Shown here: piece by piece, positions 14,088 to 37,884 of the stretch
How positions within the stretch are numbered: position 1 is the stretch's first letter
Layout: each line of letters opens with the position of its first letter
Source of the DNA: Eubacteriales bacterium
GTDB taxonomy: Bacteria; Bacillota; Clostridia; Oscillospirales; UBA644
Reading direction: 5' to 3'
Length of the DNA: 64,000 bases
NCBI GenBank assembly: GCA_045542115.1
Contig: JAZQKK010000011.1
Span: 15,190-79,189, forward strand
Notes under the pieces: model-generated
Database searches by the model: none
What the model saw: the letters and a program-made list of their open reading frames with translations, nothing else
Told to the model about the DNA's origin: nothing
Position numbers and translations under genes: made by a program

Positions 14088-15570
14088 GCCGTTGCTGTCG
14101 ATGACCGACATCTGCAAGACCTTTCCGGGGGTCAAAGCCCTGGACCGGGCCCATCTGACGGTGGAAGCCGGGTCGGTTCACGCCCTGATGGGGGAAAACG
14201 GCGCCGGGAAATCCACGCTGATGAAATGTCTGTTCGGCATCTACGCCAAAGATTCCGGGGAGATTCGACTCAACGGCCGCCGGGTGGAATTTAAAAATTC
14301 CAAGGACGCCCTGGAACAAGGGGTGGCGATGGTCCATCAGGAATTGAATCAGGCGATGAAGCGCACCGTGGCGGACAATCTGTGGCTGGGGCGGTATCCC
14401 GGGAAATTCGGCATCGTTCACCGGGGGAAAATGATTCGGGATACCAAAGAATTATTCCACAGACTGCATCTGGATTTGGACCCGGATGCGGTGATGGAAG
14501 ACCTGTCGGTCTCCCGGCGGCAGATGGTGGAGATTGCCAAAGCCGTCAGTTACGGGGCGAAGGTCATCGTTTTTGACGAGCCTACCTCGTCTTTGACCGA
14601 GACCGAAGCGGAGCAACTGTTCTCCATCATCGAATCTCTGAAACAACAGGGGTGCGGAATTATTTATATTTCCCATAAAATGGAAGAAATTCTTCGCATC
14701 AGCGACCGGGTGACGATTATGCGGGACGGAAAAACCGTGGCAAGCCACCCGGCCAAGGAACTGACGATGGATAAAATCATCCGATTGATGGTGGGGCGGG
14801 AACTGACCCGCCGCTTCCCGGAAAAAACCAACCGACCGGGGGACGTCATTTTGGAAGTCAAGGGGCTGACGGGGGAATATTCCCGCCTTCGGGACGTGTC
14901 GTTCTCCTTGAAATCCGGGGAAATTTTGGGAATTGCCGGATTGGACGGCTCGGGGCGGACGGAAGTGTTGGAAGCCCTGTTTGGGCTTTCGGCCCGGCGG
15001 TCGGGAGAATTTCTTCTCAAAGGAAGACCCATCGAAAACAAGACCCCCCGGCAGGCCATCTCCAACGGTTTTGTGTTGCTGACCGAAGAACGGCGGGCCA
15101 CGGGAATTTTCGCCATTCGGGATATTTTGGAAAACACCGTTATTTCCAATCTTCCTTCTTATCGGCGGTTCGGGGTTCTGAATCAACGGAAAATGCAGGG
15201 GGATACCGACAAAATGATAAAGACCCTGCGGGTCAAGACCCCGTCCCGCTCCACCGCCATCCGCACCCTGTCCGGGGGAAATCAGCAAAAGGTCATCTTC
15301 GGACGGTGGCTTCTCACCGAGCCGGAAATTCTGATGCTGGACGAACCCACCCGGGGCATTGACGTGGGGGCGAAATTCGAAATTTATCAACTCATCGTGG
15401 ACCTGGCCGCCAAAGGCCGGTCGGTTCTGGTTGTGTCCGGGGAAATGCCGGAACTGTTGGGCATCTGCGACCGGATTTTGGTGATGTCCGGGGGCCGGGT
15501 GGCCGGCGAAGTAGACGGCAAAACCGCCACCCAAGAAGAAATTATGACCTTAGCGGCCAAGTACGTGTGA
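14080..15570 (+). CDS. mglA: Sugar ABC transporter ATP-binding protein (duplicated ABC domains)
   Basis: 496 aa. Walker A is GENGAGKST, and the signatures are LSVSRRQMVEIA and LSGGNQQKV. It overlaps the mglB stop. Confidence 0.85.
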   Translation: MAEPLLSMTDICKTFPGVKALDRAHLTVEAGSVHALMGENGAGKSTLMKCLFGIYAKDSGEIRLNGRRVEFKNSKDALEQGVAMVHQELNQAMKRTVADNLWLGRYPGKFGIVHRGKMIRDTKELFHRLHLDLDPDAVMEDLSVSRRQMVEIAKAVSYGAKVIVFDEPTSSLTETEAEQLFSIIESLKQQGCGIIYISHKMEEILRISDRVTIMRDGKTVASHPAKELTMDKIIRLMVGRELTRRFPEKTNRPGDVILEVKGLTGEYSRLRDVSFSLKSGEILGIAGLDGSGRTEVLEALFGLSARRSGEFLLKGRPIENKTPRQAISNGFVLLTEERRATGIFAIRDILENTVISNLPSYRRFGVLNQRKMQGDTDKMIKTLRVKTPSRSTAIRTLSGGNQQKVIFGRWLLTEPEILMLDEPTRGIDVGAKFEIYQLIVDLAAKGRSVLVVSGEMPELLGICDRILVMSGGRVAGEVDGKTATQEEIMTLAAKYV

Positions 15571-23705: not shown

Positions 23706-23781
23706 AGGGGTATAGCTCAGCCGGTAGAGCAGCGGTCTCCAAAACCGCGTGTCCTGGGTTCGATCCCTAGTGCCCCTGCCA
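23706..23781 (+). tRNA. trnW: tRNA-Trp (anticodon CCA), CCA end encoded
   Basis: AGGGGTA acceptor stem pairs with TGCCCCT. D-arm is AGCTCAGCCGGTAGAGC, the anticodon loop is CTCCAAA, and the T-arm is CTGGGTTCGATCCCTAG. Confidence 0.93.
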
Positions 23782-26357: not shown

Positions 26358-26594
26358 AAAAGAAGCCCTTCAATGTTTCGCGGTCCCATCCGCTATTCCA
26401 TCTTCCACCCCACCCGCCATACCTGGCACAATTCTGCTCCGCCACCCCACCGCCACAAAAAAGAACGGCCTCTGCCGGGAAAAACCTTGTCGCCTGCCAC
26501 GGCGGCTTGGAAGGGGATACGGTCGTCGGAGCAGATTGGCGGACTTGGAGACATAGATATAAATACATAGAATAGCAATGTTTCTTATAAGACA

Positions 26595-26630
26595 AGGAAA
26601 GACTCTCTGCATAGAGAGTCTTTCCTTTTA
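26595..26630. terminator. Strong hairpin at the left edge of the AT-richer island
   Basis: AGGAAAGACTCTCT-GCAT-AGAGAGTCTTTCCT followed by TTTTA. Confidence 0.6.
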
Positions 26631-26944
26631 TCTCTTATTCTTTAAGTATTGTTCATATAGTTTACTATCATACGGAAGAACGGATGTAACGAAATACTGA
26701 CACATAATGGTATGTGGGTTATCCCACTGTACACATCGCGCATCTGCAAGAATGCATCTGCCCCCTACATTAAAATTGCAACAGCGTTGCACGTTTGCAC
26801 AAACACGCTTTGGGTCGATCCTTCATTATCACCGTCCTTCCACGATAAGTATGCAAGATGGACGGGGGTGATAATTTGCATTTCAAAACTCTACACTATC
26901 GTGTTTTAATTTCTGCCATATGAATCTTTTGAAAAAAGGAAGAA

Positions 26945-27532
26945 TTAGTTATACATAAAACTACACCTCACCGCAACATATTCCATAGAAAGGGTGTCGC
27001 GGCAAAAGAGTGTTAAATCGTAATCCCTGCTGATAAGCCAGTTGCTCTTGGCACGTTTGGATCGGTCGACCCGGCTAACGGTATAGGAAAACTGTGTTCC
27101 CGTCATATCCGTTACGATGATAACGGTTCCGTTGTCGATTTTGTCGCAGAATGAAAATTGATGAGAGTTGTCCGCACCGCCAATCACCAACGAGTGATCA
27201 TAGCAGCTACCGTAAAATCGAGCCGGTGAATTATAAAGTTTTTGGCTGTTCCACGCATCTGCCACCGGCAACGAAAGATTTAACGAAGGAATCTCTATCA
27301 GTGCCACATAGTCTACGTCATTGATCTCCAAAACCGGCATATTAGGATTTGAGGATATCTCAGGCACACCTACTGTCCTTTCAGGTAATAATTCTCCCAT
27401 TCTCGTCACAACTCTTCGACTTTCATTAGCGCCGATCTGTGTGCGAATTTGAAGGCCAACAATCAGAGCAAAACTAAGGACGACCAGGCAGATACCCAAA
27501 ACAAGAACGATTGGGAATTTTCCTTTTTTCAT
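26945..27532 (-). CDS. Divergent small sortase-family transpeptidase
   Basis: N-terminal TM segment. Sortase-like blocks are ALIEIPSLNLSLPV, LVIGGADNSHQF (canonical GH(R/T) is absent), LTLFC (compare TLxTC) and YVAVRC. Its start overlaps the minor-pilin stop by 4 nt. Confidence 0.6.
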   Translation of the reverse strand: MKKGKFPIVLVLGICLVVLSFALIVGLQIRTQIGANESRRVVTRMGELLPERTVGVPEISSNPNMPVLEINDVDYVALIEIPSLNLSLPVADAWNSQKLYNSPARFYGSCYDHSLVIGGADNSHQFSFCDKIDNGTVIIVTDMTGTQFSYTVSRVDRSKRAKSNWLISRDYDLTLFCRDTLSMEYVAVRCSFMYN

Positions 27533-28458
27533 AACTGCTTATGCCTCCTGTTGTATATACCAAGAGCAATCAGCATAATGCCGGATATACACATCAGCAT
27601 AATATACAGCGTTATATTGGAGGTATCTCCGGTGTGCGGATTGTCTGGAAGTTCCTGATTGGATTTATGTGTGTTAATAATTGAGAAGGTTCCACCATTT
27701 TTCTGTACAGTTATATTATATTCTTCCGGAACAGACCGTTCTACCACCGCCCAATTACTTTGTTCTTCATCGGATACATACCAAACATAAGACCAATTGT
27801 TACTTGCACCCAGAATCTGTGTTTCCCACAATTCACCGTTTTTATAAATGTCTACTGTAATCTCCTCAGGACGATCCTCCTTGTTTCCTGCATCCCGCCA
27901 AAGCTTTGTAACTCTGTATTCGGTTTTGGGAACATAATCCACACACTTGGGCTTTGCCTCAACATCATAGTCAAAAGAGCCATCCGTCTGAGGGGTAGGA
28001 AGGTAAACCATAAATTGGTCAAATACATAGGTGCCACTGTTGTTTTCCGCGACCGCCTCACGGACAAGGTATAAGCCTGTTTCCAAATGCTCAAAAACTG
28101 CGGTTCCGGTATCGTTTGTCGTTGCCTCTCGATAGGGCAGAAGCTGATTGGCAACAATATATGCGTTTAGTGTAACGGCGATGTTTTTCCACTGCTCTTG
28201 CACGGTGATATCGTGAATGTTGATCGGGTAGGAAGAAAACGGCTCTATCAGTTCAAATGTACCGTCTGTAAAGGCTTCGGCAACTCGGTAGATGCTGATT
28301 TGAAGGTCAGAAAATGCCCGATCCTCTTTTTGATAATACAGTGTTAAACTGGCCTCGGCCGCAGGATTCAAAGGGGTTGCCGCATATCCATATAATGGGC
28401 AAAACATTGCTATGCAAAAAACGACCAAGCATATAAATAGTGTAATTTGTTTTCTCAT
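27529..28458 (-). CDS. Minor (base-type) pilin with a Cna-B domain and a non-canonical NPHTG sorting signal
   Basis: Signal peptide present. TGLYLVRE is E-box-like. The Cna-B-like segment is YRVTKLWRDAGNKEDRPEEITVDIYKNGE...NWSYVW. The C-terminus is LPDNPHTGD, then a hydrophobic stretch, then NRRHKQL. Confidence 0.7.
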   Translation of the reverse strand: MRKQITLFICLVVFCIAMFCPLYGYAATPLNPAAEASLTLYYQKEDRAFSDLQISIYRVAEAFTDGTFELIEPFSSYPINIHDITVQEQWKNIAVTLNAYIVANQLLPYREATTNDTGTAVFEHLETGLYLVREAVAENNSGTYVFDQFMVYLPTPQTDGSFDYDVEAKPKCVDYVPKTEYRVTKLWRDAGNKEDRPEEITVDIYKNGELWETQILGASNNWSYVWYVSDEEQSNWAVVERSVPEEYNITVQKNGGTFSIINTHKSNQELPDNPHTGDTSNITLYIMLMCISGIMLIALGIYNRRHKQL

Positions 28459-29288
28459 AAGTTTTCTTCCCCCAAGGATTCTTTCTTTACGGGTGCAAAC
28501 ATAACATAAACCAGCAGCACAAAAATAATCGGAAGTGCAACAATAGGCATAACAACCAACGGTTCAATACGATATGCCTCGTTGGCAATATACAAATTTC
28601 GCGTCTGCGTTGCATCGACCTGATGCCCACGCACCAAAAGACGTTGTGTGTTGATGCCGTAAGGTGTGCAGGTTAATAGAGTGCAGTAATCCTTTCCGTC
28701 CTTTATTTGAATCAAACTTGCGTCATCAGGTTCAACAATACGTATTTGATCTACCTCGTACGTAATTGTTCGGTCAAGAATCGTAAAGTAAAATATATCG
28801 CCAATCTCCATCCTATCCAGATGGGTAAACAAAACCGCCGTAGGCAGACCGCGATGAGCAGAAACTACACAATGTGTATTCTCACCGCCCACCGGCAAAC
28901 TGGTTCCTTGCAGGTGCCCTACCGCAACGCTAAGCACGCCATCGGATGTTCCGTGATAAACAGGCAATTCCTGACTGATCTTTGGCACCGTGATGTATCC
29001 CATCATACCAGTGCCGCCAACATTCAGAATGCTGTTATAATCAGGCAAGCGGTTGTGTTCCACGAGTGGCTCATTCAGCTGCGAAAGCTGTTTGTTATAG
29101 GCATCAGCTTCTGCAAAAATGGCGGTATAATCCTCCGGCTTGTACTGCGACAACATAGACTCGTAGTCAACAATGGCCTCACTTTGTGTCTTGGAATTCC
29201 AATAGCTGCTAATAGATGGGTATAACAGCACGGACAGACCTATGAAAAAAGAAACGAGTAGTATAATCGTCGATTTTTTACTTCTCAT
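28455..29288 (-). CDS. Class C (pilus-polymerising) sortase
   Basis: N-terminal TM segment. VVSAHRG carries the catalytic His, CTLLTCTPYGINTQRLLVRG carries TLxTC and Arg, and a C-terminal TM anchor is present. Confidence 0.9.
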   Translation of the reverse strand: MRSKKSTIILLVSFFIGLSVLLYPSISSYWNSKTQSEAIVDYESMLSQYKPEDYTAIFAEADAYNKQLSQLNEPLVEHNRLPDYNSILNVGGTGMMGYITVPKISQELPVYHGTSDGVLSVAVGHLQGTSLPVGGENTHCVVSAHRGLPTAVLFTHLDRMEIGDIFYFTILDRTITYEVDQIRIVEPDDASLIQIKDGKDYCTLLTCTPYGINTQRLLVRGHQVDATQTRNLYIANEAYRIEPLVVMPIVALPIIFVLLVYVMFAPVKKESLGEENL

Positions 29289-29315
29289 AAGCCCCTCCCT
29301 AATGTTATGGATTGC

Positions 29316-29342
29316 CCCGGCAGGAGCAAAGCCCCTGCCGGG
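29316..29342 (-). other. GC-rich stem-loop between the major pilin and sortase C genes (no U-tract)
   Basis: CCCGGCAGG / CCTGCCGGG 9-bp stem in the 83-bp intercistronic gap. Confidence 0.5.
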
Positions 29343-29371
29343 ATTGCATTATGTCATCAGAATGTTTGGGA

Positions 29372-30823
29372 TTAGTCCTTGATCATAGACATTCTCTTCT
29401 TGGTAACCAGCAGAACACCGGCACCCAGAATTACGATTGTACCGAAGGTAATGAACAGAACGGTACCCATACCGCCGGTCTCAGGCAGCATAGAGCCGGT
29501 CTTGTTGACTACGTGGACACCGGAACCGGTGGAGTAGACACCGTCATTGAACACGGCGTCCAAGTTGGCGTCGGAAACGATGAATTTCTGGCGGGCAGAC
29601 AGTATGTTGTAGCCGTCGGGTGCCACAGTTTCTTCCAGATAATAAGTACCGTTGTCCAGACCTACAATACGGATCTGACCGTTGGTAACCACAATGGAAA
29701 CACCTTGCTCATCGGCTCTTGCGCGGCGGTAACCGGTCTGATTGTCCGTCAAAACAACTTTGACTTCGTTGCCACCTGTAGCGGCATCATAAATCTTAAA
29801 CTCTGCACCGTCAATCAGCTTGTTGGCAGAGTCGGTCTTGATGATGTCAACACCGTAAGTATAAGTAGTAACAGCATCTTCATTAGACACACCGCCATCA
29901 CCAAAAGTCAGCCACGCGGTGTTCAGGTTGCCGTCTTCGTTGATCACAGCGTTGCGGTTCAGCATTGCAGTGTAGTAAACGATGATTTTGTCGTTGGTTT
30001 CCAGTTCGTCACAGAATTCTTTGGTGAAGTAAACCTCGAAGGTGCAACCGTCGGTTGCATCTGTACCGGTCTTCACTTCATACAGAGCTTCGTCGGCTAC
30101 GTGGGTGCCGGTGCCGGGAACAACGTGCTCGATCTTGGAAACGTCAATGTATGTCAGACCGGTATCCATTACATCGTGCAGAACGTAGTTTTCAGCACCT
30201 GCGTGAACGTTGATGGTGACGCGGTATTCAATGGTCTGACCAATATCAGAGGTGTTGGTTGCGCCCCACTGGGCAGTGGAATCTTCGTTGACCTGCTTGT
30301 CGATGGTGGGAATACCGTTCTTCGCGTTGATAGAAGCGTGGGGGTTGGTGGTAGTCAAGCCGCACAGTGCGCCCATAGTGGAGTCTACAAGGTAGTAGCC
30401 AAGTTCAAGACCGTCAAATTTTCCGGTCGTTCCGGTAATAACAAATTCGCCGGTGTTTTCAGAGGACTTTACAGGATCAATGCCATTTGCCTTTGCGTGA
30501 GCCAGTGCAAGTTTTGCAAAAGCTGCCTTGGTGTCATCATCTTCTGCTGCTACCCAGGTCACATAACCGTCAGCATCAGTAGCCATATATGCTTTTGCAC
30601 CGTCAGTTGTGAAGAATGCAGTCCAGGTCGCGTTTGCCTTGTAGGAGTATGCGCCTGCGTCTACATCATAGCTTTCCAGATCCAACAGCTTGTAGATCTC
30701 ATAGGTAGTGTCGGTGCCCACACCGTTAATGGTGATAGCGCCGGTTTCTTCCGCAGCAAAAGCAGTAACGGATAGGGATGCGATCAGCATCAGAGAAAGA
30801 ATAACGGAAATAATCTTTTTCAT
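29372..30823 (-). CDS. Major pilin (SpaA/backbone type), LPETG sorting signal
   Basis: Signal peptide ...VTAFAAE. The canonical E-box is GTYYLEETVAPDGY. The C-terminus is LPETGG, then a hydrophobic stretch, then KKRMSMIKD. Confidence 0.85.
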   Translation of the reverse strand: MKKIISVILSLMLIASLSVTAFAAEETGAITINGVGTDTTYEIYKLLDLESYDVDAGAYSYKANATWTAFFTTDGAKAYMATDADGYVTWVAAEDDDTKAAFAKLALAHAKANGIDPVKSSENTGEFVITGTTGKFDGLELGYYLVDSTMGALCGLTTTNPHASINAKNGIPTIDKQVNEDSTAQWGATNTSDIGQTIEYRVTINVHAGAENYVLHDVMDTGLTYIDVSKIEHVVPGTGTHVADEALYEVKTGTDATDGCTFEVYFTKEFCDELETNDKIIVYYTAMLNRNAVINEDGNLNTAWLTFGDGGVSNEDAVTTYTYGVDIIKTDSANKLIDGAEFKIYDAATGGNEVKVVLTDNQTGYRRARADEQGVSIVVTNGQIRIVGLDNGTYYLEETVAPDGYNILSARQKFIVSDANLDAVFNDGVYSTGSGVHVVNKTGSMLPETGGMGTVLFITFGTIVILGAGVLLVTKKRMSMIKD

Positions 30824-30901
30824 TGTTTTAGTTCCTTTCTAAAAGAATTTTTTGTTATTGGAGAATCGAATTTACGCGCAATATTTGCCGCGATCAGAAG
30901 G

Positions 30902-33900
30902 CTATTCAAACCTCCTTTCCCGCTTGCGCCTTGATCCGATTCCATATGCCAGTGTGCCCAGAATGGTTGCTGAGCCACACAGTACATACATCAGTCGGGC
31001 CGGGGAGCCGGTTGAAGGAAGCTCAGGACCGCCCGGGTGGTAAGTGTTTGTGATGATGATGGAGTAGGTAGGTGGCGAGCCGCTACTGGCTTGAACTTCT
31101 CCGTAAGTCGTGGACCACTTTTCCTTTTCCCAAACCTCATCCACAGTGTACTGAATGACGGTTCCGTTGGTATCCTTATAGGGTAAACCTTGGAAAGCGC
31201 CTTGCCAATTGTTTTTCAGGTTTAACGTTATGCTACGTCCGGTATCGACACCATTTGCAAACAGACGCACAGTTACGGCAAATTCCTGATACAGCTTTGA
31301 ATCGTAGCCTTCGGGAATCACCCATTCCTTTGTTACCGCAACGGCAGTTTCGTTATCGGAATCCAGCGGTGTATTGGTAATCTGGTAGGCCCAGTCCTCA
31401 ACTTGCTGGATGTCCGTTTGGGTGATTTTCTTCATAGGTGTCAGGATCAACCCGCCGGAGCTGCCGTTAGTGGTACTGATTCGGCCATTGCTATTGATGC
31501 CGGAGGAAGCCATATAGTACTTGGTGCTGCTGCTGTTATTGCGTGTCGCGTAGAAACGGAACCCGGTACCGGCATCTACCGGCGTAAATGTCTGGACACC
31601 GGAATTGTCGGTTGTAGCATAGAAGTAACGACTACTGGAACGGCTGCTGTACACAAAGGTCAGCGTCTGTCCTGCTTCGTTGGTAAATTTCACCTTTCCT
31701 CCGCTGACAGTTACAGTCCAGGTCGCTAATGCAGATCCCTTGGCGGTAGCTTCATCAACCCAAGTCAGTTTTGCATCGGTTGCTGAGACCGTAGAAAGGT
31801 ATCCGTTGCTATGCCGCAAGATGTAACTTTCGCCGTTAACAAAGCTGGCGGCCTCCGCCCACTCTGTTTTCGATATCTCGATCTGCGTGATCTTTCGGAC
31901 AGTAGAGTAGTAACCGGATTCGTAGGATTCTTCAATACTGTACTGAACTTCGGTCAAGGTGTCGTAATCATACTTGGGCAGGTTGGTCCAGGTGTACATC
32001 CAACCGTTTTCATCGCTGAGGGTGATCTCCCGGATCCTGCGAACCGTTCCGTCGGGATCGGTCACGGTCAGATATGCTTGAATGTAATCACCGCTGTGGT
32101 CGACGGTGTCTTCCCACTTTTTGATGACCTGCACCGTTGTGGTGTCAGTTACCGTATCCGGTGCATTGGTAACAACGATGTAGACCCGTTGGCTCTGCTC
32201 GTCAATGCTGACGCCGTGAACAGTAAAGCCGGGAGAAGGATCGTCTACCACCTCTACGTGGTAGGTAGCTTGGCCGTATTTATCAATGGTAATCTGGATC
32301 GTCCCTTGGGGGGTGGAGTAACCTACCGCTGCGGGTGGCCCTGTCTCCTTGATGTGATAAGTCTTGCTGGGGCTCAAACCCCACATATGCGCAACACCAT
32401 TTGTAACTGTGAAGGTGTTGGTAGCAGCATCCCCCTGCTCGTAAGCGGCTTCACTGGTGTAAAGCTCCGCAGGAACTGTACAAGACGCATCTGTGTACAC
32501 AGAGAACTGTGCCCCGTCCAGCAGCTGCTGAGTCAGGACATCCTCCTTTTGGATATCCAGACTGTATCGGGGTGCCAGGTTAAAGTAAATTGCACAGTTG
32601 GAACTGGATGCGCCACGCTCCAAATACAGCACCGTCATAACGTGTTCGCCGGCAGAAATATCCACGGTTTCCACAACTCTGTCCTGAACGGAGACCTCAC
32701 CGGTGGTGAAATTGATATCCCCGGTTTCCACACCGTGGATACCGCCGATATCCAACACCAGTTCTCCGTCGATCAGCACCCACACATCATCGTCACCGGA
32801 GAAATGGAAGTGCATATCATTGCCGTAGATATCCTTGTTGCCGTCGATTCCGGTATCATCCGGCAAATTGAACCGGATATCCGTCTTCATACCATAAGCA
32901 AAGTTTGCAAGGACTTGGTCGCTATTTGAATAGCCGGAGGCATATTGGAAGTGATTCACACCTGCGTATTCCCCGTTAATGCCGTTATAGGTGTATGTAG
33001 CGGTATTGTTTCCGTTGGTATTGGCATAGGGGGAGTTTAGCGGCAGAAAACCGGAATTGGTAGAGCCAACCGAATCAGAGGGGGCACTTAAATATTCGTA
33101 AACATAGAACCGCCCCAAGCTTTGGTTGTAGGATGCCGCATTGCGCTGGGAATCGTAGTAGTAATACCCGTAGTATTCATCGTTGGGATCGGTCATAATC
33201 TGGAACAGATGGTCGCCCGTTCCCAAATATTTTTTACCCAGGGAATCTTCCGTATCGAACAGCGCATAGTAGCGTGCCGTGTTATAGATTCCGCTGGTAA
33301 CGATACCGGCACCAGGATATGTATTGTGGGTCTGACGGTTGTTGGAGTAAGCCAAATTGCCGTTTCGATAGTTGGGAGCACCATCAATAAATACGAAATT
33401 CAGTGTCTCCCGATCCATATATCCCACATTTCCGCTGTTGATTGTAGACCAGGTTTCTGAATGGGACGATGCGCCCACCGTTATCTGTGCCTCGGAAGAC
33501 AAGATATTAAACAGGGAATTATAGTCAAACAGGTGCGTGGTGATAAATTCATTGGTACTGACCGTATCGGCCACATAGGCGTTAAATTGACCGATATCAT
33601 AGGTGGCGGCGACCCAATCAGCATACAGCACTGCGTTACCGGTTACCTCCATTTCTCCGCCAGCGGAATAGTACCGATTGTTGGTTATATCGTACCAGCC
33701 CTGTAACTTGTAACTGTACTTACTGGGAGAGGTCCATTCGGTAGGCAACTTCAAAATACTGCCACCCTGAACGGTATAAGGGGTGTCCGGTGACCCGGTC
33801 AGAAACGCAAGGCCTCCATCCGTACCATCCAACCAAATCGTATAGTCCGTTGCTACTACGGAGGGCTCGTCCAACACCGTAATACTATCTGCTTCTGTAA

Positions 33901-34675
33901 TGACTCCATACCCCATAATGGCGGGATCGTTAAGAAGATATTGTGTTTCTCCAACAGCGTTGTCTAAATCACCCTCAATGACTGTAATCGATGTATCGTC
34001 GATGCCGACGATAATTGCCACCGCATTCGCGCTTTGGCTTGCTGATTCCCCCTTGTGAAGAAAAACGATATTTCCGATTTCCGGGGATCGTTCTTGTGCG
34101 CTTTTGTAAAGTTCTTCTGCGATCCACTCTAACCGCATAGATTCGGGACCTGCATTTATCGGCAAATCCGTTGCACCTGCATATTCAAGGCAGAAGGAAA
34201 CGAACATTGCCGACCAATCCCCGTAGGGGTTCCCGTACCATTGTCCATAGCGGGTGATCCCTCTACGAACACCATTAGCATCCACCTGGAAATTCAGCGT
34301 ACTTTCGGTATAGCCCAGCTGAGACTGAGCAACCAAAACCACATTTTCCTTGGTAGTGGGGCCCCGGACCATATCGGCCAAAGTCATTTCCCAATCATCA
34401 CTTGTTTCCAGGTCTGCGGTAATGTCGCTGTAACAATCGGCTGTATGTATATGCTCCTCTATGGTGCAGTTGACACATTCTTCGCCGTGGACGTGTTCTT
34501 TCTTTCCGCAGAACGCTTCCCCTGCTATACCGATGCCGGTAAGTTTCAAACTCCAAAAGACGATCAATACAACGATCAAAGAAAGGGTCGGGATGATCTG
34601 CCGGAGATTATGGCGGTCTCGATTGATTATATTGAGTTGTTCTAAAAGTTTTTGTCCCTTCTCTGGCAAGATCAC
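30902..34675 (-). CDS. Pilus tip adhesin (1257 aa): Cys/His-rich segment, CHAP-like domain, PA14/fibro-slime domain, Cna-B/Ig repeats, LPSTG signal
   Basis: YGQWYGNPYGDWSAMFVSFCLEYAG is CHAP-like. FHFSGDDDVWVLIDGELVLDIGGIHG is the fibro-slime/PA14 motif. VQVIKKWEDT... and VAVTKEWVIPEGY... are Cna-B repeats. The C-terminus is LPSTG, then a hydrophobic stretch, then RRKRERRFE. Confidence 0.8.
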   Translation of the reverse strand: MILPEKGQKLLEQLNIINRDRHNLRQIIPTLSLIVVLIVFWSLKLTGIGIAGEAFCGKKEHVHGEECVNCTIEEHIHTADCYSDITADLETSDDWEMTLADMVRGPTTKENVVLVAQSQLGYTESTLNFQVDANGVRRGITRYGQWYGNPYGDWSAMFVSFCLEYAGATDLPINAGPESMRLEWIAEELYKSAQERSPEIGNIVFLHKGESASQSANAVAIIVGIDDTSITVIEGDLDNAVGETQYLLNDPAIMGYGVITEADSITVLDEPSVVATDYTIWLDGTDGGLAFLTGSPDTPYTVQGGSILKLPTEWTSPSKYSYKLQGWYDITNNRYYSAGGEMEVTGNAVLYADWVAATYDIGQFNAYVADTVSTNEFITTHLFDYNSLFNILSSEAQITVGASSHSETWSTINSGNVGYMDRETLNFVFIDGAPNYRNGNLAYSNNRQTHNTYPGAGIVTSGIYNTARYYALFDTEDSLGKKYLGTGDHLFQIMTDPNDEYYGYYYYDSQRNAASYNQSLGRFYVYEYLSAPSDSVGSTNSGFLPLNSPYANTNGNNTATYTYNGINGEYAGVNHFQYASGYSNSDQVLANFAYGMKTDIRFNLPDDTGIDGNKDIYGNDMHFHFSGDDDVWVLIDGELVLDIGGIHGVETGDINFTTGEVSVQDRVVETVDISAGEHVMTVLYLERGASSSNCAIYFNLAPRYSLDIQKEDVLTQQLLDGAQFSVYTDASCTVPAELYTSEAAYEQGDAATNTFTVTNGVAHMWGLSPSKTYHIKETGPPAAVGYSTPQGTIQITIDKYGQATYHVEVVDDPSPGFTVHGVSIDEQSQRVYIVVTNAPDTVTDTTTVQVIKKWEDTVDHSGDYIQAYLTVTDPDGTVRRIREITLSDENGWMYTWTNLPKYDYDTLTEVQYSIEESYESGYYSTVRKITQIEISKTEWAEAASFVNGESYILRHSNGYLSTVSATDAKLTWVDEATAKGSALATWTVTVSGGKVKFTNEAGQTLTFVYSSRSSSRYFYATTDNSGVQTFTPVDAGTGFRFYATRNNSSSTKYYMASSGINSNGRISTTNGSSGGLILTPMKKITQTDIQQVEDWAYQITNTPLDSDNETAVAVTKEWVIPEGYDSKLYQEFAVTVRLFANGVDTGRSITLNLKNNWQGAFQGLPYKDTNGTVIQYTVDEVWEKEKWSTTYGEVQASSGSPPTYSIIITNTYHPGGPELPSTGSPARLMYVLCGSATILGTLAYGIGSRRKRERRFE

Positions 34676-34703
34676 ACCTCCTTTCCAATCGTTTTATTGG
34701 GTG

Positions 34704-35300
34704 TTAATCTATGAGCTTAAATTCTGATAAAGGCCAGAATTTGCAAAAAATCTCGCCAACGATTTGATCCTCGGGAATACAACCGATCACACTGCTGCGA
34801 CTATCAATTGAGGTTTCTCTTTTATCGCCCATCACAAAATAACAGTTTTCCGGTACCTGGTAAGGAAATTCAACGTCGCATTCCCCCAAAGCCTTCTCGC
34901 TAATGTACGGCTCGTCCAACGGGTTGCCGTTCAGAAAAACGGTACCGTCAGATTCGATCCAGATATAATCTCCCGGGGTGGCAATGACCCGCTTGATCAG
35001 AATTTTATTCGAGTAATAAAAGGCGCAAAGATCACCTGTTTGCAAATTCTTCTTTTTCACCAGCAAAACAAAGTCTCCATCGTTCAGATTTGGTTCCATA
35101 CTGGTGCCGGCAATTTGGAGAACCGGCAGAATCAAGGTGGCAACCAGGGCAGCAACCGCAGCAACAACGATCAATGCATTTACGGTGCTTTTAAGCAATT
35201 TGTGGAAGCGACGCTTATACCGTTCACGTTTTAATTCTTTTTGCAGAGCATCCATTGGCGGAAGCCCTTGATTGCTGTGTTTTCCTATGTATTTCTTCAT
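34704..35300 (-). CDS. Signal peptidase I (S26), pilus-operon associated
   Basis: GTSMEPNLNDGD carries the catalytic Ser box, ILIKRVIATPGD the Lys box, and GDKRETSIDSR is the GDNRxxSxDSR box. It lies 28 nt upstream of the tip adhesin gene. Confidence 0.9.
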   Translation of the reverse strand: MKKYIGKHSNQGLPPMDALQKELKRERYKRRFHKLLKSTVNALIVVAAVAALVATLILPVLQIAGTSMEPNLNDGDFVLLVKKKNLQTGDLCAFYYSNKILIKRVIATPGDYIWIESDGTVFLNGNPLDEPYISEKALGECDVEFPYQVPENCYFVMGDKRETSIDSRSSVIGCIPEDQIVGEIFCKFWPLSEFKLID

Positions 35301-35306
35301 ACGTTA

Positions 35307-35636
35307 TCATTCACCTTTAATGCGACTTGCCTCTTCCAAAGCTTGCGCGATAATCGCATCACTTTTCTTATAAGCTTCTTCCTCTATTTCTGCGGCACGT
35401 TTCTTTGCAGCATTGATATACATATCTGCTGCATCCTGCGCTGTCTGAAAAACGCCTTTTAAGTGCAAAGATGCTTCTGCAATTGAACCCAAGGTGGAAA
35501 TGTTAATGTCCTGATCAATTAAACGCCGCTCTACTTTCTCTAAGGCTACTTGTAATTTGTCAGCACGTTCTGTTTGAATAATAAGCAGTTCCAAAAGCTC
35601 ATAGCGATTTAGTTTTTTTAACTCTTTCTCCGTCAC
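35307..35636 (-). CDS. Small coiled-coil protein of unknown function, first gene of the pilus operon
   Basis: 109 aa with a heptad-like, charged sequence (ELKKLNRYELLELLIIQTERADKLQVALEKVERRL...AAKKRAAEIEEEAYKK). It lies 6 nt upstream of the signal peptidase gene. Confidence 0.5.
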   Translation of the reverse strand: MTEKELKKLNRYELLELLIIQTERADKLQVALEKVERRLIDQDINISTLGSIAEASLHLKGVFQTAQDAADMYINAAKKRAAEIEEEAYKKSDAIIAQALEEASRIKGE

Positions 35637-36068
35637 AGAATATACCTCTTTTCATTATCGAATAACAAAAAAGCAAAGCCACCAAAGAGGTATGGCAAAC
35701 CATATCTCTAAGATGACTTTTGAGATCTAAATAAGGGTGCAGAGCAAAAATGGGTACAGTTATTCTGTCTGTCAAGACATTGTACCACACTGCCATTTCA
35801 AATTGCAACTCCTTCTCTTACGTGTTTGCATATAATTATAGATATTACATTATATTATATCACAAGAGTATATATCTTTCAACTGTTTCTTTCATTTTTC
35901 CCAAAAAGTTTGGAATTGTTTTCGTGCTCAGTGTAGCAGATAATCAAATCGGCACGGTCAACCATCTCCTTTGGAAAAAATTTGGAAAATTTGAGAAAGC
36001 TATTGATTTCTTTGTCGGGGATGTGGTACAATAGAGATGCGAAAATAGTATGGGGTGGAGTGTGTTAT

Positions 36069-37190
36069 ATGAGCAAAATGAAAAAATCCATTCATCCGGA
36101 TGATGATCTGCATTATCAAACGATGGGGCTTACGCGAAACCGGGTGGAACTTTGGGAAGACGGAGCGCGGGTGGACGGATCGAAGGGGTCCTACGAATGG
36201 TGGTATTACGATTCCCATTATCCCGACGGAACGATTCTTGTGATTTTTATGTACTTAAAAAATCCCATCCACGCCAATGGACCTATCGCGCCAATGTCCA
36301 CGATGGAATTGACCCTTCCCGACGGGACAAAATTTTCGGAAGAAGTTTATGCAACCGTTGAGGAAAGTCATTACGGGAAAGACCGGTGCGACGTTCGGGT
36401 CGGGGATTGTTGGTGCCGAGGGGATCTGAAACACTACGACGTGGTTTTTCAAGGGAAAACAATGAGTGCAACGCTCTCTTTGGATGGTACGATTCCTGCT
36501 TGGCGTTCCCAAACGGGCAGTATCTTCTTTGGAGATGCCGAGGAGTATTATTTTGCGTGGCTTCCGGCGATTCCCGAAGGAAATGCTATTGCCGACGTGG
36601 TTTATGACGGCGGAAAGACTCTTCATCTGGAAGGTTCGGGCTACCACGATCACAACTGGGGCAATATTTCGATGCTTAAACTGATGCATCATTGGTATTG
36701 GGGCAGAGCCAAGATTGGCGATTACAAGGTTATTTCTTCGTGGATCACGGCGGGGAAGCAATACGGATATAAAGAGCACGACGTTTTTATGATTGCTAAG
36801 GGCGGCGAGATTCTCGGGGACAATTCCAATCACACTCTGAAATTCAAGCCCGAGGGGCGGTATATCGACGAATATACCGGAAAACCCGTATATAATAAAG
36901 TCGTTTACGAATATACCACCGAGGCGGGGGAGGAATATCGCATTATTTACGACCGTCACGGCGATATCAATAAAACCTGTTTTGTGGACGTTCTTCCGAA
37001 GCCGATAGGAATTCTTGCTAAACTTGTCGGGTTTGACGGTGGATATCTACGATTTGAAGGCACCGCTACCATTGAGAAACTTGTTAATGGCAAAGTTGCG
37101 GAAAAGGTGAGTGACCCTGCCGTTTGGGAGCTGATGTACTTTGGAACGTCCTGTGCGGATGAGCGGTTTGCTGCGCAATCGGAGCGTTAA
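36069..37190 (+). CDS. CrtC/AttH-like (hydroxyneurosporene-synthase family, lipocalin-like) protein
   Basis: GSYEWWYYDSHYPDGT matches the YEWWYFD signature of the CrtC family. The function here is unknown. Confidence 0.45.
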   Translation: MSKMKKSIHPDDDLHYQTMGLTRNRVELWEDGARVDGSKGSYEWWYYDSHYPDGTILVIFMYLKNPIHANGPIAPMSTMELTLPDGTKFSEEVYATVEESHYGKDRCDVRVGDCWCRGDLKHYDVVFQGKTMSATLSLDGTIPAWRSQTGSIFFGDAEEYYFAWLPAIPEGNAIADVVYDGGKTLHLEGSGYHDHNWGNISMLKLMHHWYWGRAKIGDYKVISSWITAGKQYGYKEHDVFMIAKGGEILGDNSNHTLKFKPEGRYIDEYTGKPVYNKVVYEYTTEAGEEYRIIYDRHGDINKTCFVDVLPKPIGILAKLVGFDGGYLRFEGTATIEKLVNGKVAEKVSDPAVWELMYFGTSCADERFAAQSER

Positions 37191-37210
37191 AAATAAAAGG
37201 AAAAAAATTA

Positions 37211-37236
37211 CGGAGTGTCACGTTCGTGGCACTCCG
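37211..37236. terminator. Bidirectional terminator hairpin
   Basis: CGGAGTGTCACG-TTC-GTGGCACTCCG flanked by A- and T-runs. Confidence 0.7.
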
Positions 37237-37248
37237 ATTTTGTCGTTG

Positions 37249-37884
37249 TTAATGAGCGTCGGGGGTTGGGGTCCCGTCTAAAAAGTCGAGGTTTTCGGGT
37301 TTTCGCAGGCCGTAAATGCAAACCGAGATGATTTCGGAAATTTCGGAGATGGATCTGTCACAGCCGTTTTTCAGCCATTCCAGGATGATGGCGTTGATTC
37401 CGTTCAGATAATACATCATCACGTACGGGCGGTCGCTTGTGGGGTAGTGAAAGCGGTCTAAAATGGGGTTGAAAATGTGTTCAAACATACGCTTGTACAC
37501 GTCTTCAAATCCAAGGGTTTTATTGTGCACCAATGCCGTACCGAAAACTTCCTTATGCTCTCTGACGTAGGTTAAATAGGGGGTTAAATATTCGTCGCAG
37601 ATAAACAGCAATTCTCCCCGCTGGCAATTGGTAAGATTCAAGGCGATGGATTGCGTATCGGTAGAGAAATAGGAGAGAAAATCGTTGAGCAAATACCGTG
37701 CCGTTTCGTTGAGCAGATCCCCGATGGTATCGTAGTGCAAATAGAAGGTGGAACGGTTTACGCCCGCCGTTTTACAGATTTCACATACGGTGATGTAGTC
37801 CAAGGGTTTCTTTTTGAGCAGAGAAATCAATGCACGGTCCATTTTCGTGGCAGTATTAAAATACTTGCTTTCGGATGGATTCAT
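37249..37884 (-). CDS. TetR/AcrR-family transcriptional regulator
   Basis: The N-terminal HTH is ITVCEICKTAGVNRSTFYLHYDTIGDLL. Confidence 0.85.
   Translation of the reverse strand: MNPSESKYFNTATKMDRALISLLKKKPLDYITVCEICKTAGVNRSTFYLHYDTIGDLLNETARYLLNDFLSYFSTDTQSIALNLTNCQRGELLFICDEYLTPYLTYVREHKEVFGTALVHNKTLGFEDVYKRMFEHIFNPILDRFHYPTSDRPYVMMYYLNGINAIILEWLKNGCDRSISEISEIISVCIYGLRKPENLDFLDGTPTPDAH

Follow-up and report, generated by a model that had tools for sequence, protein, structure and literature searches.

What might a sortase-fold protein that lacks the catalytic histidine be doing in a pilus operon? The question is raised by a locus of seven genes, g1 to g7, in a stretch of 64,000 nucleotides from an Oscillospirales bacterium (positions 15,190 to 79,189 of contig JAZQKK010000011.1, assembly GCA_045542115.1), which is here called the window. 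The principal adhesive fibres of Gram-positive bacteria are sortase-dependent pili, which to our knowledge have been studied almost wholly in pathogens and a few probiotics. The explanation that we favour, and consider reasonably probable, is that the locus is a self-contained Oscillospirales pilus cassette in which the product of the last gene, g7, is a non-catalytic partner to the base pilin g6. What is new is a conserved, apparently undescribed family of pseudo-sortases tied to the base pilin; the signal peptidase and the sorting signal, which a first-pass annotation of the window had counted among the unusual components, are not novel.

The seven genes all lie on the minus strand, between 35636 and 26945, in the following order:

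35307-35636, minus strand: g1, cytoplasmic DivIVA-like coiled-coil protein, 109 aa (sub-threshold match to Pfam DivIVA)
34704-35300, minus strand: g2, S26-family type I signal peptidase, Ser/Lys dyad intact, 198 aa (Pfam, NCBIfam)
30902-34675, minus strand: g3, tip adhesin with LPSTG and with Cna_B and SpaA stalk domains, 1257 aa (domain searches)
29372-30823, minus strand: g4, major (shaft) pilin of the SpaH/EbpB family with LPETG and E-box, 483 aa (NCBIfam, Pfam)
28455-29288, minus strand: g5, class C sortase, the sole canonical sortase in the window, 277 aa (NF033745, PDB match)
27529-28458, minus strand: g6, minor (base) pilin with the class-B-type signal DNPHTGD, 309 aa (Cna_B, TIGR03063)
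26945-27532, minus strand: g7, membrane-anchored sortase-fold protein without catalytic His, candidate pseudo-sortase, 195 aa (fold and alignments)

The first four junctions are gaps of 6, 28, 78 and 83 nt, and at the remaining two the genes overlap by 4 nt. The open reading frames (ORFs) and the domain assignments agree with the seven-gene operon described in the first-pass annotation, and the LPSTG, LPETG and NPHTG motifs and the E-box can be read directly from the translations. Proteins g3 (LPSTG) and g6 (NPHTG) are separate tip and base pilins; in each, a hydrophobic stretch and then a basic tail come after the signal, and both signals are conserved among the orthologues. The family matches support the proposed three-pilin operon with a class C sortase, and by its genes the locus is a sortase-dependent heterotrimeric pilus operon of the SpaA/Ebp type. 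A scan of the module bore out that no regulator, recombinase or further sortase, such as a housekeeping sortase, is encoded inside it, and no sortases besides the canonical g5 and g7 were found in the 64-kb window. A species scan, with one genome per species, yielded 29 related loci (L001-L029), all of them in metagenome-assembled genomes of Oscillospirales/Clostridia from human, goat, sheep, deer and horse guts. All seven genes are present in the same order in 20 of these loci, and the incomplete loci keep to this order up to the ends of their contigs.

The sortase nature of g7 is apparent from its fold rather than from family models. The protein scores 25.5 bits against Pfam Sortase, under the gathering score of 26.6, and at most 18 bits against all NCBIfam sortase class models. 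An AlphaFold2 model (predicted local distance difference test score 77.4) consists of an N-terminal membrane helix and an eight-stranded barrel, for which Foldseek retrieves class C, A and D sortases with E values of ~1e-7 and a probability of 1.00. A profile alignment of g7 with the operon's own class C sortase (SrtC, g5) by hhalign gives a probability of 95.5%. On this model and these alignments g7 is a sortase in predicted fold and in ancestry. Classification with hidden Markov models, as suggested in the first-pass annotation, placed g5 in the canonical class C and left g7 below the Pfam cut-off and without a class model.

In three independent alignments (HMMER against solved class C sortases, hhalign against SrtC, and hhalign against Staphylococcus aureus SrtA) the sequence IGG(A/D) of g7 occupies the site of the sortase motif xGH(R). 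A histidine at the catalytic site occurs in 0 of 30 orthologues, 0 of 143 family representatives and 0 of 283 relatives of g7; position 119 is Gly, Ala, Ser or Thr, position 120 is Ser, Thr, Ala or Val, and no column of the family reaches 25% His. His124 was considered as a displaced catalytic histidine and rejected, as that column varies even among close relatives (His, Tyr, Gly, Asn, Arg or Gln) and has mostly Gly in the family as a whole. It is well established that mutating the catalytic His abolishes the activity of S. aureus SrtA. The canonical cysteine position is likewise poorly kept, with Ala, Val, Ile, Thr or Ser in 133 of the 143 representatives and Cys in 10; in L022-L029, loci that still have the full cassette (apart from L029, a decayed locus described below), it is Val or Ser. 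The arginine, R189 in the window protein, is found in 75 of the 143 representatives and in 213 of the 283 relatives, a set weighted to close relatives.

The g7 gene is nevertheless maintained. Its family comprises 2001 representatives at E≤1e-10 (~2,000 clusters at 50% identity) and has conserved motifs of its own (TDMTG, GG, Q125, Y185 and C190), while a ratio of nonsynonymous to synonymous substitution rates (dN/dS) of 0.16 indicates purifying selection; because of these features the gene is, as judged by its conservation, clearly functional. That g7 could be a duplicated sortase that no longer functions and is in decay, as the loss of the canonical catalytic residues might suggest, is hardly credible, given an ORF that is intact at ~190-197 aa in 28 species-level genomes, a conserved position and overlap, and strong family motifs; this candidate was rejected on the dN/dS value and the family-wide conservation. 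The proteins of the family are named simply 'sortase' in the source databases, no curated Pfam or NCBIfam model covers them, and no identical copy of the window protein is present in the assembly index. No description of a pseudo- or inactive sortase family, or of this cassette (including the pili of Faecousia and Ruminococcaceae), was found in a literature coverage that is incomplete.

The gene is closely associated with that of the base pilin. Wherever a g7-like gene was examined, also in remote members of the family, it follows a ~300-aa Cna_B pilin, in most cases with a 4-nt overlap. The genes g6 and g7 are the two fastest-evolving of the cassette (mean distances 0.442 and 0.447), and their distance matrices correlate with r = 0.94, the highest value of any gene pair; with the background of the signal peptidase and SrtC removed the partial correlation is still 0.74.

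The base pilin itself matches Cna_B with 46 bits and the srtB_target model TIGR03063 with 28.2 bits (cut-off 18.15), and contains the sequence YVPK as a candidate site for the linking lysine. Its signal region consists of a class-B-type motif, a hydrophobic segment and a basic tail. In most orthologues the signal reads x-P-x-T-G-D/E (SPQTGD, PPQTGD, VPKTGD and others), NPHTG being one variant. Substrates of Clostridium difficile SrtB, which is the housekeeping sortase of that species, have been cleaved experimentally, e.g. SPKTGDSTN and PSDSPKTGDSTN (PMC4155245). The pattern PD[SNGP]P[QHE]TGD[TS]S in g6, with the hydrophobic stretch and basic tail, closely resembles PSDSPKTGDSTN (PMC4155245). 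Unlike in C. difficile, no class B sortase is encoded in the 64-kb window, and g7 matches no class B model. By its sequence NPHTG is a variant of the clostridial class-B signal (S/P)PxTG(D), the signal expected of a base pilin that is handled by a housekeeping-type sortase.

Is g7 then an active, atypical second sortase, which cleaves the base pilin and attaches it via NPHTG? The first-pass annotation had proposed such a match between an atypical sortase and an atypical signal. The sortase fold, the Cys (TLFC) and Arg (VRC) kept in the window protein and its close clade, and the tight coupling and covariation with the base pilin would fit this proposal, and so would the specialized extra sortases that are described for the pilus islands PI-1 of group B Streptococcus (GBS) and PI-1 of the pneumococcus (PMC3166054, PMC2680257). 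We consider it improbable. The signal is of the class B housekeeping type, and P-x-T-G-D/E is still intact in the partner pilin of lineages in which g7 is without both Cys and His; it must therefore be read by a different enzyme. The TLFC of the window protein is one residue shorter than the TLxTC of sortases, and in one profile alignment (hhalign) Cys184 of SrtA falls on R178. Furthermore, Cys177 and Cys129 co-occur in the relatives of g7 (139 sequences have both, 15 only one), and this pair excludes Cys104, which most of the family has. Co-occurrence suggests that a structural Cys129-Cys177 disulfide fits better than a nucleophile, an effect to which a shared clade may contribute. The proposed match between sortase and signal is unsupported by these observations, the more so as the family is His-less and has mostly lost the Cys, and g7 is likely a pseudo-enzyme and not a matched second transpeptidase.

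Several points weigh against a non-catalytic g7 partnering the base pilin. The window protein and its close clade retain the Cys (TLFC) and the Arg (VRC), such that residual or unconventional catalysis is possible in this clade. Cys190 is conserved in 128 of the 143 representatives (90%). The correlation between g6 and g7 could stem from a shared recombination history of adjacent genes. Finally, a search of the 64-kb window and of 10 kb around the relatives' loci found no housekeeping or class B sortase. The conservation of Cys190, the best-conserved cysteine, together with the presence of Cys104 in 63%, the family's own motifs (TDMTG, GG, Q125, Y185) and the purifying selection might be taken to indicate a rearranged active site, for example with Cys190 beside the Arg position, and hence a sortase-fold enzyme of a new catalytic class. 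This is very improbable: Cys190 neighbours the Arg on strand β8, where from strand geometry its side chain should face away from the canonical groove, the pairing of C104 with C190 looks like a disulfide, and there is no conserved His or obvious general base. A pseudo-enzyme thus remains the preferred reading of g7.

The shaft pilin and its sortase are, by comparison with g7, conventional members of their families. Protein g4 scores 115.7 bits against NF033902 (cut-off 95) and 61.4 bits against TIGR04226, and matches Pfam GramPos_pilinBB, SpaA and Gram_pos_anchor. Its E-box, read directly from the translation, is YYLEETVAPDGY, and the linking lysine is predicted in PTIDK. The LPETG motif is unchanged in all 26 shaft pilins read, in the form MLPETGG except for ELPETGG in L028 and MLPETGA in L025. 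As a separate observation, the pairwise distances of g4 (L002-L024) fit those of the other six genes poorly (r 0.35-0.49, versus 0.8-0.9 among the others), which suggests that shaft-pilin alleles may have been exchanged between cassettes, as in antigenic variation. Sortase g5 scores 263 bits against NF033745 (cut-off 160) and 217 bits against GBS SrtC1 (PDB entry 4d7w), and its His-Cys-Arg triad is read from the translation as SAHRG, TLLTC and LVRG.

Signal peptidase g2 matches Pfam Peptidase_S26 with 119.8 bits and TIGR02227 with 125.5 bits. The motifs SMEP, KRV and GDxRxxSxDSR, which contain the catalytic Ser, the Lys and box E, are identical across 23 of 23 full-length orthologues. The best match of solved structure is S. 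aureus SpsB (72 bits); SipA scores 53 bits. With its Ser/Lys dyad kept, g2 differs from pseudo-signal-peptidases of the SipA/LepA type, and the sequence shows an active-looking signal peptidase. The claim of a dedicated, competent signal peptidase therefore stands in so far as the dyad is kept in all 23 full-length orthologues, and fails in respect of novelty: pilus loci with signal peptidase homologues are known, some with an intact dyad (PMC4049620, PMC8088525), as in the SipA homologues of Streptococcus suis and Streptococcus agalactiae (PMC4049620).

The coiled-coil protein g1 scores 18.2 bits against Pfam DivIVA, below the gathering threshold of 28. Sub-threshold DivIVA matches are also obtained for 13 of 15 orthologues (best E 2.2e-6), and the protein, which is conserved in 22 loci with a dN/dS of 0.10, resembles the DivIVA family in sequence while falling short of the threshold for membership. 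In a remote relative, L115 (431-2430), a DivIVA-like gene lies directly 5' of a minor pilin gene and a g7-like gene; the pilin signal there is degenerate (MPEHGK, without Thr). Going by this arrangement, g1, g6 and g7 may together constitute a functional sub-module.

The tip adhesin g3 contains, from the N-terminus, a long atypical signal peptide with an N-region of 28 residues, C-x2-E-H-x-H-x3-C motifs, a CHAP-like domain, a segment resembling Listeria-Bacteroides repeats, a PA14-like domain, SpaA/Cna_B domains and the LPSTG signal, which is conserved as LP[ST]TG among the orthologues. The features of its N-terminal and central parts are:

34433-34510, minus strand: two C-x2-E-H-x-H-x3-C motifs, tip residues 56-81, directly past the signal/transmembrane segment
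33872-34414, minus strand: degenerate CHAP-like domain, tip residues 88-268 (TIGR02594; alignment with CHAP-positive homologues)
32585-32827, minus strand: fibro-slime/PA14-like carbohydrate-binding domain, tip residues 617-697 (TIGR02148, Foldseek)

The first-pass annotation had described this protein as a tip with a dead CHAP domain and PA14, and both parts of this description are supported, the first as a degenerate CHAP-like domain. Residues 88-268 of the window sequence give only a weak match to TIGR02594 (E = 0.0046), and a PDB profile search with the domain gave no match. However, Pfam CHAP matches 3 of 11 tip orthologues (best E 2.7e-5), and the region aligns throughout with homologues that carry PF05257. 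Where the CHAP-positive homologues have WCAMF...HVGIV...EGN, the window protein has WSAMF...AVAII...EGD; the catalytic Cys and His are both absent, replaced by Ser and Ala, and the substituting Ser is invariant in all orthologues. Residues 617-697 match TIGR02148 with 45.6 bits, just above the cut-off of 45, and score under the cut-off of Pfam PA14 (15.8 versus 24 bits, E = 0.013). Many homologues carry PF07691, and the best Foldseek matches of an AlphaFold2 model are PA14 sugar-binding domains, with E values of ~6e-4 and low template-modelling (TM) scores. The tip protein is modular. The C-x2-E-H-x-H-x3-C motifs, which look like metal-binding sites, are present in two copies in the window protein and in ~12-14 copies in some orthologues (at the N-termini of L022, L024 and L016/L017). 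Tip proteins of L006, L010, L014, L016-L018 and L020 have an extra insertion of ~150 aa after the CHAP-like domain (residues ~270-420), e.g. YLIQNVSTGRYMH, which the window protein does not have.

The extent of the unit that carries these genes follows from comparison with the relatives and is summarized with the adjacent signals below:

26919-35930, minus strand: shared pilus cassette (blastn homology to relatives; flanking ORFs unshared; GC 0.467 versus 0.514)
35854-35882, minus strand: promoter-like site, TTGAAA, 17-nt spacer and TG-TATAAT (11 of 12 consensus matches, ~215 nt 5' of g1)
26777-26791, minus strand: terminator-like hairpin followed by a T-run (pattern match only; ~155 nt past the g7 stop codon, outside the shared DNA)
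26594-26627, plus strand: perfect 15-bp hairpin (T-rich tail on the plus strand; outside the cassette)

In blastn comparisons with L001-L029, L004 is 90.3% identical over 9029 nt, and the matches of several relatives start at 26919 or 26927 and end at 35930. The flanking ORFs of the window are not shared with the loci, except for a DUF5714 gene (L017) and a 94-aa ORF that overlaps the promoter region (L004). From these homology limits and unshared flanks it follows that the module extends from the promoter to g7 and includes nothing more. The interval of 26630-35990 given in the first-pass annotation is thus a real region drawn too widely, since homology ends at 26919 and 35930 and leaves the hairpin and a 290-bp spacer outside. 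The promoter-like site falls within the conserved module and is predicted to function as its promoter. The hairpin at 26594-26627 more likely terminates the neighbouring plus-strand genes than the cassette, because its T-rich tail is on the plus strand. The non-coding spacer of 290 bp between this hairpin and the module (26630-26919) is conserved in 0 of 29 relatives and has no Rfam match; a search of Rfam with the 215-nt leader and the 3' spacer gave nothing credible, with two chance hairpin matches to a miRNA model far below threshold. Long antisense ORFs (up to 487 aa) lie on the plus strand over the pilin and sortase genes, at 29312-30775, 31811-32929 and 28707-29225. They look like shadow ORFs and not genes, as their identity in the relatives is lower than that of the sense genes.

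Was the cassette acquired? Its content of guanine and cytosine (GC) is 46.7%, compared with 51.4% for the remainder of the window, and is below that of all 148 other 9-kb windows tested, the minimum of which is 48.5%. In a sliding window, values of 0.42-0.50 are found over the interval that the first-pass annotation had called AT-richer, versus 0.52-0.55 on either side; the profile is not flat, and that claim is confirmed. The dip is modest, ~4.7 points, and the low GC extends to ~38000. The cassette value equals those of the cassettes and flanks of the closest relatives L004, L002 and L005 (46-48%), and not that of its own flanks (51-52%), for which reason the cassette was probably acquired fairly recently from a lower-GC relative. 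The comparison of genomes for presence and flanks that had been proposed agrees with this: the cassette is compositionally distinct and stands in unrelated contexts elsewhere.

It could instead be a long-resident locus, with a low GC owed to its surface-protein genes and unrelated flanks owed to rearrangement between distant species. Some of the evidence favours residence and speaks against acquisition. In most other genomes the GC of the cassette tracks that of its flanks, within ~3 points; per-gene GC inside the cassette spans 0.40 to 0.50, and other low-GC patches are present elsewhere in the window. There is no integrase or transposase in the flanks, there are no direct, inverted or att repeats at the cassette ends and no adjacent tRNA gene, and searches of plasmids (tblastn with g7) and phages (blastn with the cassette) gave no relevant match. 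A tRNA-linked insertion was rejected, the only tRNA gene (Trp, 23706-23781) being 3 kb away. Scanning metagenomes with the flank gene that adjoins the cassette turned up no contig, and no empty site, of the same species. Of the marks of a genomic island, the cassette shows atypical composition, sharp boundaries and unrelated flanks, and lacks mobility genes, repeats and tRNA insertion. Long residence is nonetheless the less likely history. It accounts poorly for the lowest GC of all 9-kb windows, for a GC that matches the genomes of the closest relatives and not the cassette's own flanks, and for 90% DNA identity to L004 exactly over 26919-35930 with zero homology in the flanks. Moreover, relatives of the adjacent flank gene in metagenomes are 76-88% identical and none has the cassette beside it. 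Recent acquisition is therefore retained as the probable origin.

In L029 (6775-10282) g1, the signal peptidase gene and a tip gene that ends at ~760 aa stand directly before g7, which is reduced to its C-terminal half. No gene for SrtC, the shaft pilin or the base pilin is left, and the locus looks like a decayed cassette. The DNA of the window is chromosomal, with rpoB and rpoC 13 kb from the cassette, and the flanks encode TetR, EamA, a Diels-Alderase-like protein, DUF5714 and TipAS. Adjoining the cassette, at 35982-37884, are a gene with a Diels-Alderase-like N-terminal and an AsqO-like C-terminal domain and a TetR-family regulator; relatives of the former occur widely in metagenomes from soil and gut, and never beside the cassette. 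Farther away, a low-GC (~0.40) insert of two genes at 56966-58853, between rpoC (52731-56399) and rpsL (58960-59493), encodes a 395-aa protein without NCBIfam match and a 238-aa lipoprotein-like protein, and may be a second small island within a usually conserved gene cluster.

The architecture of the cassette can be compared with that of known pilus systems. It shares with the SpaA/Ebp/SpaCBA pili (Corynebacterium diphtheriae SpaABC, Enterococcus faecalis Ebp and Lactobacillus rhamnosus SpaCBA) the tip, shaft and base pilins with a class C sortase in one operon, a shaft of the SpaH/EbpB family with LPXTG and E-box, and a base pilin with a different signal, which in those systems is read by the housekeeping sortase. 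In contrast to them it has an active-looking type I signal peptidase, a DivIVA-like gene and a His-less sortase-fold gene, its base-pilin signal is of the clostridial class-B type, and its tip contains degenerate CHAP and PA14-like domains instead of vWFA. A signal peptidase family gene among three pilins and a sortase is also found in Streptococcus pyogenes FCT-3 (cpa-sipA-fctA-srtC2-fctB), Streptococcus pneumoniae PI-2 and the NE pilus locus of Clostridium perfringens VR-10B, the base pilin of which, FimB, also carries the TIGR03063 domain (PMC8088525). In those loci, however, the polymerase is a class B sortase, whereas here it is a canonical class C enzyme, and no g7-like or g1-like gene has been reported in them; SipA of group A Streptococcus (GAS) is without the Ser and Lys that g2 keeps in all orthologues.

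For g7 two comparisons are instructive. SipA/LepA, the pseudo-signal-peptidase that GAS pilus polymerization requires, is by analogy similar: an enzyme fold encoded in a pilus operon, loss of the catalytic residues and a proposed binding role. The folds are different (S26 versus sortase), and binding is backed by experiments for SipA, whereas for g7 it is only proposed. In GBS PI-1/PI-2a and pneumococcal PI-1, islands that encode two or three class C sortases, an extra sortase-family gene likewise adjoins that of an ancillary pilin and may be specialized for this pilin. Unlike g7, which is below the family cut-off, His-less and ~80 residues shorter, those extra sortases are full His-Cys-Arg enzymes.

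From these data the following model of pilus assembly can be proposed. A single promoter would drive the seven genes. The pilins most likely have their signal peptides cleaved off by g2, a step that may matter most for the tip with its 28-residue N-region, while the coiled coil of g1 may, more speculatively, position the pilus machinery. As the only competent transpeptidase in the cassette, g5 would join the LPSTG tip to the LPETG shaft and polymerize the shaft, in keeping with its family membership. The PA14-like and degenerate CHAP-like domains of the tip would serve as binding modules; that the latter binds peptidoglycan or glycans is speculative. The base pilin g6 would probably be added last and be passed to the wall by a class B-like housekeeping sortase encoded elsewhere, or by SrtC; this anchoring step is one that we infer, since neither the window nor the 10 kb searched around the relatives' loci encodes such a housekeeping sortase. 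Protein g7, translationally coupled to and apparently co-evolving with the base pilin, is most likely non-catalytic; it may bind the base-pilin signal or dock on SrtC, and might thereby control the timing of base-pilin incorporation, i.e., pilus termination and anchoring.

We propose tentatively, and with somewhat less confidence than in the cassette as a whole, that the g7 family is the first described group of pseudo-sortases, dedicated base-pilin partners that decide pilus capping and hand-over to the wall. A His-less and mostly Cys-less sortase-fold family tied to a base-pilin gene suggests an unrecognized, non-enzymatic step in pilus termination or anchoring, and the label 'sortase' that annotation pipelines assign to the family is probably misleading. 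The cassette is common in uncultured gut Oscillospirales of humans and livestock and, through its PA14-like tip, points to glycan-binding pili. If the proposal is true, g7 would be to sortases what the pseudo-peptidase SipA is to signal peptidases, and would constitute a new control point for the length and anchoring of pili in gut Clostridia.

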